A stretch of DNA of 14,853 bases from a virus. The notes below the pieces were generated by a model. The model was not told the DNA's origin. It saw only the letters and a list, made by a program, of their open reading frames with translations, and searched no databases. Position numbers and translations under genes: made by a program. The stretch lies in the UHGV virus genome UHGV-0073227; one strand, 5' to 3'. Shown piece after piece: positions 2,950-9,897 of this stretch; positions within the stretch are counted from its first letter, which is position 1; each line of letters begins with the position of its first letter.

Positions 2950-3777
2950 TTATTTAATCTGGATAAATGGTGTATTGGCACCACTGGTCATGTATTGCGG
3001 CAGTGTACCGTTCCACTTGTTGATGGCTTCCAGCTCCATGACGCCAGGGTTCTGGCGCAGAGCTTCACCGCGTAAACGAATAGCATCGGCCTCGGCCTGG
3101 GCTTTTGTGCGAATCGCATCTGCCTGTCCGGCAGCTTCCGCGCGCAACATGTTAGCTTCCGCTTCGCGCTGTTTTACTTCCTGTTCGCGTTGCAGGGTTT
3201 TCTGGTTCGCCGTGACTTTGGCATTAATGCTGTCGATAACGGTTGGCGGGTACTCCGGCTTACCCACATATGAGAGACTCATTACCTGAATACCTATGGG
3301 CGTCATTTCTGCCTGAATGTCTTTAAGAGCTGCATCCAGTAGTTCAGACTTCCCGCCGTCGATAAATTTGTCAGTGGTCATTTTGCTGGCCAGTCGATTG
3401 AGTGCGTCGGCGATCTTCTGGCGCAGGTCAGTGTCGGTAATGTCATCCACGCCTTTGCGGTAGGTCTGAAACACCGTGGTAACTTTGGATGGATCAACTT
3501 TGTAGGCAACACCGATGTGATAGCCGATGGTTGTGCCGTCACTCATCTGGAAGCTGAACGGCTCATCGTAGGTCTTCATTTGTTTGAAGGTTGGGAAGAT
3601 GTAAACTTCAGTATTCCAGCCAGTCCAGTAGCGACCAACACCGACCACCTCACCGACGCCTTTATCGTCGCCCGGTTTATTTACTTTGATGCCAACATTA
3701 CCGGGTTCAACGCGATCGCAGCCGACAAGGCCAATGATCGGCAGAACAATGGCTAAAGCAAAAATAATTTTTTTCAT
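2950..3777 (-). CDS. SPFH/band-7 (HflK/HflC/QmcA-like) domain lipoprotein
   Basis: 275-aa ORF. The N-terminus MKKIIFALAIVLPIIGLVGC is a signal peptide ending in an LVGC lipobox. The body has SPFH-type motifs (NVGIKVNKPG, GIQVMSLSYVGKPEYPPTVIDSI) followed by the Ala/Glu/Arg-rich coiled tail (QREAEANMLRAEAAGQADAIRTKAQAEADAIRLRGEA) typical of HflC/HflK-like proteins. RBS AAGGA, 6 nt before the ATG at 3775-3777. Confidence 0.85.
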   Translation of the reverse strand: MKKIIFALAIVLPIIGLVGCDRVEPGNVGIKVNKPGDDKGVGEVVGVGRYWTGWNTEVYIFPTFKQMKTYDEPFSFQMSDGTTIGYHIGVAYKVDPSKVTTVFQTYRKGVDDITDTDLRQKIADALNRLASKMTTDKFIDGGKSELLDAALKDIQAEMTPIGIQVMSLSYVGKPEYPPTVIDSINAKVTANQKTLQREQEVKQREAEANMLRAEAAGQADAIRTKAQAEADAIRLRGEALRQNPGVMELEAINKWNGTLPQYMTSGANTPFIQIK

Positions 3778-6158: not shown

Positions 6159-6863
6159 TTATCCGACCCTGTTATACTGGATTGACTGATGAATGAGAAC
6201 TTTCCCCATTATGAATAGATGTTCTTCAGCTGATTCACTTATAAACCATTCCTTGTAGGCCGGATTGTCTGATATAACAGCAAGTTGCATCCCTTGCATT
6301 TGCAGGCGTTTGATATGGAAGGTGTGCCCAAAAATAAAAATATAGATACCGTCAGTTTCAAAATTTCTGACGGATACGTCGACAAACACCTGATCTCCTG
6401 CACACAGAGTAGGAGCCATGCTGTCGCCATCAACTGTTATCATCTTTATGATATTTGCTGGCCTGCTACAGAACAGACGTCTTGCGGCGTCATGTGAAAA
6501 TTCTATAGCATGGACCGTTTCTGCAAAATCTGAAACAAGGAATGTTCCTGGTCCCGCGCTGGCAGCGATATCCAGGACTTCCACACGAAAAATATCCTTA
6601 TCATTTTCCAGCGGGGAATATGATTCCTGTGGTGTCGGATTGCAGGATGTGCTTTCTTCTGGGGTCATAGGACCAACACCGTACGATAGCCACTCGGGGC
6701 GCACGTTCAGGGTATTGGCTATCTCCACAACTTTCCTGGAGCCTGTGGCACCATTAACCAGTTTATTTACGCTCGATTGAGCCATGCCAACCTCTCTGGC
6801 CAGTTTTCCCTGCGAGTATCCGCGGATAGTCATAGCTAACTGTAGCCTGTCTGAAAAGCTCAT
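6159..6863 (-). CDS. Phage repressor, cI-like (N-terminal HTH_XRE plus C-terminal S24/LexA-type autopeptidase)
   Basis: ATG at 6861-6863 with an AAGGAGG RBS. N-terminal HTH (YSQGKLAREVGMAQSSVNKLVNG). C-terminal S24 motifs: an Ala-Gly site (AASAGPG), the Ser nucleophile in VDGDSMAPT, and Lys in HIKRL. Divergent from the Cro-like gene. Confidence 0.9.
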   Translation of the reverse strand: MSFSDRLQLAMTIRGYSQGKLAREVGMAQSSVNKLVNGATGSRKVVEIANTLNVRPEWLSYGVGPMTPEESTSCNPTPQESYSPLENDKDIFRVEVLDIAASAGPGTFLVSDFAETVHAIEFSHDAARRLFCSRPANIIKMITVDGDSMAPTLCAGDQVFVDVSVRNFETDGIYIFIFGHTFHIKRLQMQGMQLAVISDNPAYKEWFISESAEEHLFIMGKVLIHQSIQYNRVG

Positions 6864-6986
6864 AAGTCCTCCTTTTTCTGCCCTTTTAGTGTATCGCCTT
6901 AGCGATATATACACAAACCGCTTTTCCGTACATTGCAATCGCTTTAATCAATCGCTATAGTGAATGAAATCAGGTTGGAGGTCGAT
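6864..6986. promoter_or_regulatory. Immunity-switch intergenic region (OR-like operators with divergent PRM/PR promoters)
   Basis: Perfect palindrome TATCGC-CTTA-GCGATA (6892-6907). Two direct CAATCGCT repeats (6936-6943 and 6949-6956). Candidate PR: -35 TTGCAA (6933-6938), 16-bp spacer, -10 TATAGT (6955-6960), both overlapped by the repeats. The 13-mer TCAATCGCTATAG (6948-6960) is shared with the PL region. Confidence 0.6.
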
Positions 6987-7250
6987 ATGAAAAATGAAGG
7001 TATAGCCAAGGCTGTAGATATTGCGGGAAGCCAGATTGCTCTGGCTAGGCGTTGTGGTCGCGCGCAGTCAACAATTTGCGACTGGCTGAATGGGAAGAAA
7101 AAAATTTCTCCTGAATTTGTTCCGTCTCTGGTTAAGGCGGTCGATGGGAAAGTCCAGGCGTATGAATTTCGTCCTGATCTACCGGAGCTTTTCCCACACC
7201 CAAGTTTAGCGCACACAGAAGATGGAGTGTGCGAAGGAGATAAACAGTGA
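6987..7250 (+). CDS. Cro-like / YdaS-family small HTH regulator
   Basis: ATG at 6987 with a GGAGG RBS 5 nt upstream. The HTH segment (GSQIALARRCGRAQSTICDWLNG) resembles the YdaS/Cro family. Divergent from cI; its stop overlaps the next gene's GTG. Confidence 0.8.
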   Translation: MKNEGIAKAVDIAGSQIALARRCGRAQSTICDWLNGKKKISPEFVPSLVKAVDGKVQAYEFRPDLPELFPHPSLAHTEDGVCEGDKQ

Positions 7251-7954
7251 ATACAACAATTTTTACCGATAAAGCATCCATGACCAGTATTGAGATAGCT
7301 GAGCTGGTGGGAAGCAGACCAGATAGTGTTAAGAGAACTATTGAAACACTGGCTAAAAAGGGAATCATCCAATTTCCACAGTCTGTGGAAATTGAGAATA
7401 AACAATCACTTGGCCCTCGCCGATTTTCTAGCGCGTATGTATTCGAAGGTGAACGAGGCAAACGCGACAGCATCATTGTTGTCGCACAGCTTTGCCCTGA
7501 ATTCACCGCCTGCCTGGTAGATCGCTGGCGTGAACTGGAAAAACAAATCCGCAAACCAATGAGCCAGATCGAAATGGTTGCTGCAATGGCGCTTGAAGCT
7601 GTTCGCCAACAAAGACGTCTTGAGCAGGTGGAAGAGAAAGTCACCTACGTTACTGAAACCGTCGAGCGAATCAAAAGAGGCACCATACGCGATGGTTATG
7701 CAGGCTACCGTCAGCTGGTAGCGAAAACGGGTATGTCAGATGCGAAATGCCGCAATCTGGTGAACGCATATCAGATCCCTACCGACCCCCATGAGTTCAT
7801 GAGGCCGGATGGATTGTTGTCTCGTCGCGCAATTGTTGCTGTGGAACCGTTTATGGCTGCTTTTTATCGGGTTATGGAGGAAGCAGAACCGCGAGGGACT
7901 TGCTGGTATTACCCGAAAATGGGGGTATTTCAGGTTATTGGTTGGCAGAAATAA
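7247..7954 (+). CDS. Rha-family phage regulatory protein / antirepressor-like
   Basis: GTG start overlapping the cro stop (GTGA), preceded by a GAAGGAGA RBS. The N-terminal motif TSIEIAELVGSRPDSVKRTIETLAKKG is consistent with the Phage_pRha family, recalled from memory. Confidence 0.7.
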   Translation: MNTTIFTDKASMTSIEIAELVGSRPDSVKRTIETLAKKGIIQFPQSVEIENKQSLGPRRFSSAYVFEGERGKRDSIIVVAQLCPEFTACLVDRWRELEKQIRKPMSQIEMVAAMALEAVRQQRRLEQVEEKVTYVTETVERIKRGTIRDGYAGYRQLVAKTGMSDAKCRNLVNAYQIPTDPHEFMRPDGLLSRRAIVAVEPFMAAFYRVMEEAEPRGTCWYYPKMGVFQVIGWQK

Positions 7955-7958
7955 GAAA

Positions 7959-7979
7959 GGCCGGCAGAGAAAACCGGCC
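7959..7979 (+). terminator. Stem-loop GGCCGG-(9 nt)-CCGGCC immediately after the Rha-like gene stop
   Basis: 6-bp GC stem 5 nt after the TAA, followed by AGTCGGGTTTATCG (a weak T tract). Possible attenuator or weak terminator. Confidence 0.3.
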
Positions 7980-8006
7980 AGTCGGGTTTATCGTCGGAGA
8001 TATTAC

Positions 8007-8831
8007 GTGAAAAACAATATCAAAGTTTTCGATTTTAAATCAAGCACTGGTGAATTGTTGTCATCAGTTCGTAGTGTGGTCATTGATTCAACACCATGGT
8101 TTTTTGCCGTGGATATATGTAACGCGCTGGGGCTGACAAATACTGCTATCTCCCTTCAGTCCATCGATGATGAAGATAAAACCGAATATAAGGATTACTT
8201 AGGTTCGGGACGTAAGCCTTTGCTGGTCAATGAATCCGGGCTCTATGCGCTGATTATCAAAAGTCGAAAAAAACAGGCAAGACGTTTTAAACGGTGGATT
8301 ACATCGGAGGTAATTCCGTCAATTCGTAAAACGGGGAATTACAGTCTTACCACAATGACATCCCTACCAGATTTTAGCGATCCGGCTGCTGCTGCCCGTG
8401 CCTGGGCGGATGAATATGAGGCTAAAAACAGAGCAATTAGTTACGTTCATCGTCAGGCCCAATACATCGAACATCTGGAAAATTTATTCCAGCCTGGCAT
8501 GACACCGGTTCAGTTCTGCAAGCAACTTAATGGAGTAAATGTTCAGCGTATCACAGCATTTCTGGAGGCTCACAACTGGCTTTATGACGAGCGTCCTGAA
8601 TCGCGAAGCCCCGCATGGCGTGTAAAGGCATATGCCCGAGATCTGTATCTGACCGAACGTCACCACTATATCGATTCAGGTTATGAAGAAGGGTTTTATT
8701 CGTATACACCAGTTCTTCTCCAGAAAGGGGCGGTCTGGATTTATCGCCAGTATCTTAGAGGTGCATTACCCATGAAGAGAAACTGGAATGGCGAATTCAC
8801 CCACGATAAAGAACTGGCGGGTGCTGCATGA
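8007..8831 (+). CDS. Phage antirepressor with an N-terminal Bro-N domain and a C-terminal KilA-C/ANT-like region
   Basis: GTG at 8007 is the first in-frame start after the upstream stop, with a GGAGA RBS 6 nt upstream. Bro-N-like motif: VVIDSTPWFFAVDICNALGLTNTAISLQSIDDEDK ... ESGLYALIIKSRKKQARRFKRWITSEVIPSIRKTG. Confidence 0.8.
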   Translation: MKNNIKVFDFKSSTGELLSSVRSVVIDSTPWFFAVDICNALGLTNTAISLQSIDDEDKTEYKDYLGSGRKPLLVNESGLYALIIKSRKKQARRFKRWITSEVIPSIRKTGNYSLTTMTSLPDFSDPAAAARAWADEYEAKNRAISYVHRQAQYIEHLENLFQPGMTPVQFCKQLNGVNVQRITAFLEAHNWLYDERPESRSPAWRVKAYARDLYLTERHHYIDSGYEEGFYSYTPVLLQKGAVWIYRQYLRGALPMKRNWNGEFTHDKELAGAA

Positions 8832-9124
8832 TTGTTCTCCAAAATATTGATTCCTCAATTTCGGGACGTTACACTGTTCTGGCACCTTATAAAGCGGGTG
8901 CCGGGGGTCGCAGCCCGGAATTGCATACGGCGATATACGACGCGCCAGCGTCTTTTTTATCGTCCGCGCTCACGCACGCCAGAATTATGGTGGGCTGGGC
9001 AGGGGAGCCGAAAGGCTCGCCGGTTTCCGTATGCGCCGGTACTGCGAACCCTGTTCAGTCTGCCACCAGTGAGTTTCGCAGCTCCGGTGGTGGAAGTTAT
9101 CCATTGCATACGGAGGCTGCCATC

Positions 9125-9676
9125 ATGGCTACGATCCCAACCCTCACTCAACCTGAAATTGCCATCGTTGATGGTCAGGCTGTTACTTCATCCCTGGCTG
9201 TTGCCAACTTCTTCTCCAAACGTCATGACGATGTACTGAAAAAGATCCGCACGCTTGAATGTTCCGCATCATTCACTGCCCGCAATTTTTCGGTGAGTGA
9301 TTACACCGATTGCACAGGCCGCAAACTACATTGCTATCAAATAACCCGCGACGGCTTTGCGTTTCTTGCTATGGGTTTCACGGGTAAACGTGCTGCCCAG
9401 TTCAAAGAGGCATACATAAATGCCTTTAACCAGATGGAGAAGAGTTTATCAGGTGCCGATGCGTCTGATATGTCAGCTGTCGCACGAAACGCCAGAGGCG
9501 TATACCTGCATTTGCGTGAAATCCATCAAATCTGGACAAGCCAGCTTTATCCAATGCTTAAGGCTGTTGAATCTCCGCTGGCCAGCAAACTGTACGACCG
9601 TGTAGGTGATGCTGTTTTTGGTGCTGCACTTGTTGATTCCAGGCTGAATGGTTCTGACAAGGAGGTGCGTCCATGA
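9125..9676 (+). CDS. Second Rha-family phage regulatory protein / antirepressor-like
   Basis: ATG at 9125 with a GGAGG RBS (9112-9116). Rha-like N-terminus: AIVDGQAVTSSLAVANFFSKRHDDVLKKIRTL. The open frame also extends upstream to an ATG at 8828 that overlaps the Bro-N stop, so a 282-aa N-extended form is not excluded. Confidence 0.75.
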   Translation: MATIPTLTQPEIAIVDGQAVTSSLAVANFFSKRHDDVLKKIRTLECSASFTARNFSVSDYTDCTGRKLHCYQITRDGFAFLAMGFTGKRAAQFKEAYINAFNQMEKSLSGADASDMSAVARNARGVYLHLREIHQIWTSQLYPMLKAVESPLASKLYDRVGDAVFGAALVDSRLNGSDKEVRP

Positions 9677-9897
9677 TCCGCCACATCGTTAATTTCCTGT
9701 ATCACCGATACAACCATTGCCCCCGTGTGGGGCAGTGGTTCACCACCAGCAACGGACACGTTCTGCGGGTTTGCCTGGTCAATACAGAAAGCCAGAAGGT
9801 TGTCTGCCAGGTTCAGGGACGTACTCATACCCTGAGTTATCCGCTGGTGGCGTTTCAGTCCGGAAAAATGTTTAAGCGTCTGGGAGGTGCCGTATGA
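9673..9897 (+). CDS. Hypothetical small protein (74 aa)
   Basis: Strong AAGGAGG RBS 7 nt upstream; its ATG overlaps the Rha stop (ATGA) and its stop overlaps the ATG of the replication initiator. Cys/His-containing; no family recognised. Confidence 0.6.
   Translation: MIRHIVNFLYHRYNHCPRVGQWFTTSNGHVLRVCLVNTESQKVVCQVQGRTHTLSYPLVAFQSGKMFKRLGGAV

Follow-up and report, generated by a model that had tools for sequence, protein, structure and literature searches.

An antisense-RNA immunity module of the P1/P4/Gifsy-1 type is probably embedded in the open reading frame of a Rha-like prophage gene

The question raised by this locus is what a GC-rich leader (positions 8832-9124) does in front of a Rha-like gene of the virus genome UHGV-0073227. 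The stretch of DNA that was analysed, called the window here, is 14,853 nucleotides long. An earlier note had described a three-part sequence arrangement in the leader, and had proposed a translational attenuator or riboswitch-like leader, protein-binding sites, or a low-complexity N-terminal extension of the Rha-like protein. Two coding features frame the question:

8828-9676, + strand: long open reading frame of 282 aa that spans the leader and continues as the Rha-like gene; its start codon and the Bro-N stop codon overlap in ATGA (8828-8831), and the frame is the counterpart of P4 eta.
9125-9676, + strand: Rha-family regulator or antirepressor-like gene, 183 aa from this ATG (Pfam Phage_pRha).

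Direct reading of the sequence confirmed both copies of ATTGCATACGG (8920-8930 and 9103-9113), the inverted 8-mer CCGTATGC between the two 11-mers (9027-9034), both hairpins and the Shine-Dalgarno sequence GGAGG (9112-9116) that had been described, and the ATGs at 9125 and 8828 share one reading frame. Each flanking copy is complementary to the middle element, which could, as had been claimed, pair with either of them. Counted on both strands, the 14.8-kb window has three occurrences of the 8-mer core GCATACGG, all inside 191 bp, in comparison to an expectation of 0.33 per window; a count of three was reached in 1 of 200 shuffles. The 11-mer ATTGCATACGG itself occurs twice in the window. The G+C content over 8850-9150 is 0.57-0.63, as compared to about 0.44-0.50 in the flanks. 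A tRNA/tmRNA scan gave no match. With a probability of roughly 85%, we consider the region to be an antisense-RNA immunity module of the P1/P4/Gifsy-1 type that is embedded in an open reading frame.

Based on an Rfam search, which had been proposed in the earlier note, two families were detected above their curated thresholds. The first, isrK (RF01394, with the family title isrK Hfq-binding RNA), scored 57.0 bits against a gathering score of 50 and matched model positions 1-77 of 77. The second, C4 antisense RNA (RF01695, a family in which the P4 CI RNA is included), scored 80.4 bits against a gathering score of 45 and matched model positions 1-87 of 87. Both full-length matches lie on the same strand, 24 nt apart. 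They were the only families found in 8700-9300, where riboswitch and other leader families gave no match at E<=1; isrK and C4 thus stand where a riboswitch-like leader had been suggested. The RNA features are the following:

8847-8875, + strand: putative sigma-70 promoter of the IsrK-like RNA (-35 TTGATT at 8847-8852, 17-nt spacer, -10 TACACT at 8870-8875).
8882-8958, + strand: IsrK-like small RNA (a1b1 or P4 seqA element; Rfam RF01394 isrK).
8882-8901, + strand: hairpin 1 of the isrK fold.
8901-8918, + strand: hairpin 2 of the isrK fold, which is the CCGGG-N8-CCCGG hairpin noticed earlier.
8939-8952, + strand: intrinsic terminator of the IsrK-like RNA, followed by six U residues (terminator scan).
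8983-9070, + strand: C4/CI-type antisense RNA (Rfam RF01695).
8987-8989, + strand: conserved AUG at the 5' edge of C4 (Rfam consensus uuuuAuGG), in frame with 8828 and 9125.
8988-9004 with 9049-9065, + strand: closing stem of C4, 17 bp, which encloses two hairpins.
9005-9018, + strand: C4 hairpin 1 with a GAAA loop, which is the GAGCC-GAAA-GGCTC hairpin noticed earlier.
9019-9040, + strand: C4 hairpin 2, the 12-nt loop of which (9024-9035) carries the b' element.
9066-9068, + strand: CCA directly 3' of the C4 closing stem.

The IsrK-like RNA has the three hairpins of the isrK fold, the last of them being the intrinsic terminator. Homologues of the C4-type RNA were collected with a C4-core pattern search that returned 120 viral contigs, a sample that is not unbiased, the pattern being of fixed length and fixing hairpin 2 and part of its loop. 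In the 87 distinct homologues 98.3% of the cells in the C4 fold were paired, with hairpin 2 fixed by the search pattern. The fold is backed by strong compensatory change: 354 two-sided changes were counted in these homologues, in comparison to 103 +/- 8 in shuffled data and at most 70 with slid partners, and 13 pairs showed two-sided changes. In P1 and P4 the processing of C4 and CI is done by RNase P, and the CCA at 9066-9068 is the sole sequence hint that the C4-type RNA may be excised by this enzyme here.

The three 8-mers of the earlier note are b1, b' and b2 of P1/P7 c4, and correspond to seqA, seqB and seqC of the satellite P4. A second triple, which had been overlooked, consists of TCGCAG (8908-8913), CTGCGAA (9042-9048) and TTCGCAG (9075-9081). 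In RNA terms the two triples are arranged as follows:

8908-8913, + strand: a1, TCGCAG, the complementary partner of a', in the hairpin 2 loop of the IsrK-like RNA.
8920-8930, + strand: b1, ATTGCATACGG, in the single-stranded linker 5' of the terminator; its core GCATACGG (8923-8930) is complementary to b'.
9024-9035, + strand: b', UUUCCGUAUGCG, the 12-nt loop of C4 hairpin 2; holds CCGTATGC (9027-9034).
9042-9048, + strand: a', CUGCGAA, in the single-stranded C4 junction.
9075-9081, + strand: a2, UUCGCAG, the downstream target of a'.
9103-9118, + strand: b2 and Shine-Dalgarno sequence; ATTGCATACGG at 9103-9113, and the pairing with b' (9106-9118) covers GGAGG (9112-9116).

Both triples co-vary across about 120 related phage loci, and the check by covariation that had been proposed in the earlier note was thus positive. 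For b' and b1, cognate matches of at least 8 nt were found in 32 of the 51 distinct loops (63%), as compared to 26 of 2550 non-cognate combinations; for b' and b2 the corresponding numbers were 41 of 51 (80%) and 69 of 2550, so that the non-cognate rate was 1-3%. All 25 distinct a' types had a cognate a2 match of at least 6 nt, located at +83 to +90 from the C4 AUG, and 21 of the 25 had a cognate a1 match of the same minimum length about 80 nt 5' of this AUG. Non-cognate matches of at least 7 nt for the a element stayed below 1%. The position of b2 was +115 to +123 from the C4 AUG in all modules, with (G)GAGG and an ATG (+138) next on the 3' side. The context at +138 is GGAGGCTGCCATCATGGCTAC in most modules, P4 among them. 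The ATG at 9125 would be the regulated start codon of the module.

The best E. coli match, L001 (97% identity over 4 kb), is the same as the window as far as IsrK hairpin 1 and resumes this identity at the Shine-Dalgarno sequence. Between these points a cassette of about 210 bp has been swapped as a unit, with all six a and b sites differing in concert. This concerted change argues for RNA-RNA pairing and against protein-binding sites. Specificity would reside in the variable halves of a' and b', so that no cross-reaction is expected between modules whose loops differ.

When the leader was folded as a whole (8882-9140), the minimum-energy structure had -123.3 kcal/mol (z = -5.5). A 13-bp helix between 9022-9034 and 9106-9118 pairs the middle element with the downstream copy and buries GGAGG, and a' (9042-9048) is paired with a2 (9075-9081). 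These cis pairings in the unprocessed leader displace the canonical closing stem of C4. The duplex energy of b' with b2 (-21.6 kcal/mol) was stronger than that of b' with b1 (-13.8 kcal/mol), both being calculated from short segments; duplexes of the complete C4 with its targets were dropped, because the whole RNA gets unfolded in such a calculation and the energies are uninformative. The sequestration of the ribosome-binding site that had been suggested is thus found in the predicted structure, and its effect on translation would follow by analogy with the known systems.

The putative promoter sits within the long open reading frame and ends 6 nt 5' of the start of the IsrK-like RNA. A consensus promoter scan over 8600-9300 returned no promoter, the candidate scoring 8 of 12 with a scan threshold of 9. 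We keep the candidate as a putative promoter because its position is conserved and because there is a precedent in Gifsy-1, and not from the scan: the hexamers TTGnnn and TAnnnT keep their positions in divergent modules, PisrK of Gifsy-1 is the counterpart of 8847-8875, and in P4 the promoter PLE likewise lies inside a long open reading frame. A literature search on EHEC and Stx phages gave no relevant expression data for this RNA.

By analogy with P1, P4 and Gifsy-1, the module is most likely what silences the antirepressor-like gene of the Rha family in lysogens. For processing, action in trans, polarity through Rho and the sign of the effect of IsrK, the model follows P1/P7, P4 and Gifsy-1. 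Transcription from the promoter inside the long frame would begin at about 8882, and most transcripts would end at the terminator (8939-8958), giving a 77-nt IsrK-like RNA that exposes both a1 (loop of a hairpin) and b1 (single-stranded linker). RNA that reads through would hold the C4-type RNA (8983-9070), which may be cut out by RNase P and accumulate. Its b' loop and a' junction could then pair with b2 and a2 just 3', in cis or in trans. The complementarity of b' and b2 is seen in the sequence and in its covariation, and since their helix covers GGAGG, ribosomes would be kept from starting at 9125. The untranslated RNA would probably be terminated by Rho, as in P1 icd-ant and P4 timm. The upstream sites a1 and b1 could be rival targets for C4, either aiding early termination, as P4 seqA does, or titrating C4 so that the gene is switched on, as IsrK does for anrP in Gifsy-1. 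On transcripts of the early operon that come from upstream, ribosomes ending the Bro-N gene may restart at the overlapping ATG at 8828. If P4 eta is a guide, in-frame translation through the module should open up the terminator, the fold of C4 and the pairing at a2 and b2, and give a long protein that is insensitive to immunity.

Selection acts to keep the frame through the module open. Between -105 and +138 there were 21, 119 and 143 stop trinucleotides in frames 0, 1 and 2, and in the hypervariable b' segments the numbers were 0, 24 and 7. Among 59 modules distinct in a' and b', the frame was open upstream and fused to the downstream gene in 50, and in 23 of these fused modules an upstream start overlapped the stop of the preceding gene. 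The other nine had stops on both sides and a short open reading frame of 28-47 codons, and mixed layouts numbered 0. The spacing from the IsrK start to the C4 AUG was 102, 105, 114, 135 or 144 nt, with one exception of 115. In the window the frame provides nested in-frame forms of 282, 229 and 183 aa, starting at 8828, 8987 and 9125, and RefSeq calls the long form, also in the 97%-identical L001.

The N-terminal part of the long form was matched by the Pfam family Phage_ASH (PF10554) at aa 15-110 of the 282-aa frame (62.4 bits against a gathering score of 26, E 6e-17), and Phage_pRha was matched at aa 120-205; for the gene from 9125 the E-value of Phage_pRha was 2e-30. The Rha-like protein was assigned to PHROG families of transcriptional regulators and anti-repressors. 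The Phage_ASH match coincides exactly with the RNA region, and the Ash domain has been described as a domain of unknown function in the regulatory regions of Stx phages (PMC8951638). The Ash model also matches the obsolete "cI gene product" open reading frame of P4 (8168-8584), and Rfam places C4 at 8420-8507 of P4, inside this frame, and isrK at 8615-8692. Because the model matches a P4 frame that contains the C4/CI RNA, the "Ash domain" is a conceptual translation of the RNA module. Ash has also been equated with P4 epsilon (usage in PMC8628076); this identification was rejected, as epsilon matches PF25738 and PF10554 matches the frame over the CI RNA. Of the open frame with a low-complexity extension that had been anticipated, the open frame was retained, and is kept in most relatives, and the low complexity gave way to the Pfam Ash region.

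Other readings of the locus were weighed against an immunity module. The best of them, which we regard as possible although clearly second to repression by C4, is positive control of the Gifsy-1 type: the short IsrK-like RNA would open the read-through mRNA in trans, translation would start at 8987 in place of 9125, and repression by C4 would be secondary. In Gifsy-1, IsrK raises the translation of anrP more than 100-fold and the AUG of orf45 is needed for this (PMC4825925). The window has an equivalent AUG at 8987, in frame with the Rha gene, and its Rha protein is 62% identical to a Salmonella phage protein behind the same type of module. However, a strong GGAGG lies 5' of 9125 and is overlapped by b2 in most modules, whereas nothing comparable was seen by eye 5' of 8987. 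From AUG 8987 the frame can be read for 229 codons, up to 9676, without meeting a stop, and an orf45-like frame of this kind cannot be coupled through termination and reinitiation in the way reported for Gifsy-1. Positive control is in any case a variant of the favoured explanation and not an exclusive rival.

A more far-reaching proposal, to which we give slightly less credence and which remains speculative, is that three nested proteins are made, with a functional, RNA-shaped "Ash" peptide altering the Rha regulator, and that the two freely reassorting specificity sites (at least 49 b' and 25 a' variants), exchanged as 210-bp cassettes, form a combinatorial code. If this were true, the silencing or awakening of antirepressors between co-resident prophages and satellites would be governed by this code.

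A purely cis-acting attenuator or riboswitch-like leader, in which the middle 8-mer flips between the two copies with neither an RNA processed to act in trans nor an immunity function independent of a ligand, appears improbable. It agrees with the pairing of b' with b2 and of a' with a2 in the fold of the full leader, and two alternative cis structures of the read-through RNA have been demonstrated in Gifsy-1. Against it speak the lack of riboswitch and leader families at E<=1, the placement of the middle element in a full-length C4 fold that is supported by covariation, the action of the P1/P7 and P4 homologues in trans as processed RNAs, and the trans-acting short IsrK of Gifsy-1. The cis attenuator put forward in the earlier note is therefore not upheld, since its middle element sits in the loop of a C4/CI-family RNA that acts in trans in P1, P7 and P4.

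We find it very hard to maintain that the region is coding only, with "Ash" as the N-terminal domain of a 282-aa Rha/Ash regulator and no role for RNA. The E-value of Phage_ASH, the RefSeq call, the open frame and the changes of the spacer in multiples of three are all in line with such a protein. Yet the Pfam model matches the old P4 "cI protein" frame that holds the C4/CI RNA, and the compensatory stem changes and the covarying loop and target triples go beyond what a protein domain explains. In addition, a passage in PMC12197685 that cites PMC4825925 has the nucleotides of orf45 conserved and its amino acids variable. The data fit a dual use, as RNA and as a frame kept open, and not coding alone. 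Least credible of all is the idea that the three 8-mers are operators for a DNA-binding protein, for although 8-11-mers that recur close to a promoter and to the start of a gene may serve as operators and regulator genes lie around, the middle copy stays the reverse complement of its partners across 51 loop variants while the flanking copies remain repeats in direct orientation, the second triple independently shows the same behaviour, the sites fall in loops or single-stranded parts of conserved RNA folds, and dozens of unrelated site sequences would each require a matching protein.

The surroundings of the antisense-RNA module are those of an early region in a lambdoid prophage that resembles Stx phages. 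The gene order is a CI-like repressor (6159-6938, - strand), a Cro-like gene, a Rha/Ant-like gene, a Bro-N/Ant-like gene, the RNA module with the Rha-like gene, and replication genes. A 309-bp query of the region retrieved 216 phage records, mostly of Stx-converting phages. The module probably controls an antirepressor-like gene adjoining cI/cro, and prophage induction could therefore be influenced, as IsrK does in Gifsy-1. About 300 bp that are present in RefSeq as the N terminus of a "Rha family transcriptional regulator" or as an "ash family protein" thus carry two regulatory RNAs. The value of the finding is mainly corrective; its interest lies chiefly in the annotation (the Ash domain and the missing ncRNA features) and in the variety of specificity cassettes. 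The principle is known from P1/P7 (1990), P4 (1990s) and Gifsy-1 (2016) and would not surprise a specialist; the locus is probably a real but ordinary prophage switch.

Among known systems, sar/ant of P22 resembles the locus in that a small phage RNA blocks the translation of an antirepressor by pairing with its start region. Unlike the window module, sar is a cis-antisense RNA from the opposite strand, has no C4 fold or duplicated targets and is unrelated in sequence.

The isrK-orf45(STnc1160)-anrP locus of Gifsy-1 is closer. Like the window, it has an IsrK-family RNA, a C4-like RNA and an antirepressor-like gene 3' of them. The isrK promoter and the leaky terminator of Gifsy-1 have a putative promoter and an intrinsic terminator as their counterparts in the window, and in Gifsy-1 the C4-like RNA is a stable RNA carried by the read-through mRNA. 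In both loci an AUG lies at about +107 from the IsrK start, and AUG 8987 takes the place of the first orf45 AUG (A107). Pairing in Gifsy-1 has been proven by compensatory mutations of isrK G28/G31 with C162/C159 (PMC4825925), which by position corresponds to the pairing of a1 with a'. The 45-codon frame of Gifsy-1 stops before anrP and is translationally coupled to it, whereas the frame in the window is open up to 8828 and reads into the Rha gene, and a short frame of about 45 codons ending at the antirepressor start was not found in the window.

The immI region of P1/P7 (a1 b1, c4 with a' and b', a2 b2, icd, ant) shares with the window a C4-family RNA with two exposed antisense segments, as well as duplicate target pairs up- and downstream, the downstream pair lying over a ribosome-binding site. 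In P1/P7 the controlled gene is also of the antirepressor type, and the loop sequence sets the immunity specificity. There, c4 blocks the ribosome-binding site of ant and determines heteroimmunity (PMC12197685). The P1-like phage D6 has the pair of isrK and C4 as well, upstream of icd-ant, and so does a Salmonella phage. The Rha protein resembles D6 Ant weakly (E 1e-4 over 34 aa). Between c4 and ant, P1-like phages carry icd as a small frame of its own, whereas the window module has no separate short open reading frame of the icd or orf45 type; its target Shine-Dalgarno sequence is that of the Rha-like gene itself, and the module lies inside a continuous frame. Control also differs between the systems in direction and level, being a translation block with Rho in P1, termination in P4 and activation by IsrK in Gifsy-1.

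P4 has the same two Rfam families in the same order as the window, with isrK over seqA and C4 over CI, and the loop is again complementary to one upstream and one downstream site. The downstream site adjoins GGAGGCTGCCATCATGGCTAC and the ATG at +138, the same offset as that of 9125 in the window. The P4 frame from the C4 AUG has 111 codons, so the ATG at +138 gives a frame of 65 codons, which we take to be kil; P4 Kil was reportedly given as 65 aa by Forti et al. in 1999. One long frame runs through the module in both elements, with a start that is coupled to the upstream gene in P4 and overlaps the upstream stop in the window, and with the promoter, a putative one in the window, inside; the Pfam Ash model matches in both. 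The nested layout of P4 is thus present in the window, with one frame (8828-9676), a start overlapping the Bro-N stop and the nested in-frame ATG at 9125. The two differ in that P4 is a satellite and the window module lies among early genes of a lambdoid prophage of the Stx-phage kind, in that the downstream frame has 65 codons in P4 and encodes a 183-aa Rha-family regulator in the window, and in that seqA of P4 lies 84 nt further upstream than its counterpart. The eta gene of P4 has been described as a member of the Bro network with a constitutive promoter, seqA and CI inside it and with coupling to the gene upstream; termination is averted when eta is translated, and Kil is its truncated form (PMC10111431). 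Relatives of CI and seqA inside Bro-network genes have been detected in that study with the Rfam models C4 and isrK. As it has already been published that C4 and isrK occur together and that they are equivalent to CI and seqA (PMC10111431, PMC7313666, PMC4825925), the window provides an uncharacterised example of a known module.

We found that a cassette of ~210 bp had been swapped as one unit between the window and the E. coli prophage record L001, in prophage regions sharing 97% identity overall.

Cassette exchanged between the window and L001
Window, about 8905-9115: exchanged cassette
L001, about 2406-2620: exchanged cassette

The cassette comprises the upstream targets a1 and b1, the terminator, the C4 stems, the exposed segments a' and b', and the downstream targets a2 and b2. 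Its conserved flanks are the promoter with IsrK hairpin 1 and, at the opposite end, GGAGGCTGCCATCATGGCTAC. The cassette of L001 was similar to that of Salmonella phage L125.

Judging from the aligned sequences, the specificity sites a' and b' reassort. In alignment A1 16 of the 49 b' loops were combined with more than one a', and the b' of the window (CCGUAUGC) occurred alongside three different a' sequences.

Examples of reassortment
Window: module
L002 (near-identical E. coli prophage), 3332-3420: module
L038 (viral contig), 9708-9796: module

Complete modules were also detected in tandem arrays, with a short gene after each copy.

Tandem modules
L038: three copies
L007, L020, L021, L091 and L110: two copies each, 653-659 nt apart
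L002: 848 nt apart
L117: 869 nt apart

The specificity loops differed between the copies within L002 and within L038, and thus a single phage can carry several immunity specificities.

The 59 distinct modules of viral contigs L004-L123 fell into two clean classes, with no intermediates seen among them. The fused modules lie within a continuous ORF joined to the downstream gene, and in the intergenic ones C4 is overlain by a short ORF 28-47 codons long; the proportions of the two classes (50/59 and 9/59, respectively) are biased by the search pattern.

The RefSeq annotation of L001 and L002 holds no ncRNA feature for isrK or C4, and the entire RNA region is taken up by CDSs, each called a 'Rha family transcriptional regulator' or an 'ash family protein'. 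The Pfam family PF10554 ('Phage_ASH') is the translation product of isrK/seqA and C4/CI DNA, and in P4 it matched the old 'cI protein' ORF.

CDSs and PF10554-related DNA over the RNA region
L001, 2329-3180: RefSeq CDS
L002, 2329-3180 and 3177-3836: RefSeq CDSs
Window, 8870-9157: PF10554-related DNA, isrK and C4
L003 (P4, NC_001609), 8168-8584, minus strand: old 'cI protein' ORF, PF10554 match

P4 epsilon is matched by PF25738, not PF10554; one paper has PF10554 as the epsilon marker (PMC8628076). In Rha proteins of Stx phages, the Ash domain has been described as functionally unknown (PMC8951638).

Downstream of cro, the window carries three consecutive antirepressor-type genes (Rha, Bro-N, Rha). 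The mechanically listed Rha-like ORF (7247-7954) and Bro-N ORF (7809-8831) overlap by 146 nt, and the RefSeq homologue of Bro-N (275 aa) has a later start, equivalent to about 8007 in the window. Three candidate start codons are nested in frame at 8828, 8987 and 9125, giving 282, 229 and 183 aa, respectively. The positional counterpart of 8987 is the orf45 AUG in Gifsy-1, and that of 9125 is the P4 start that presumably belongs to kil.
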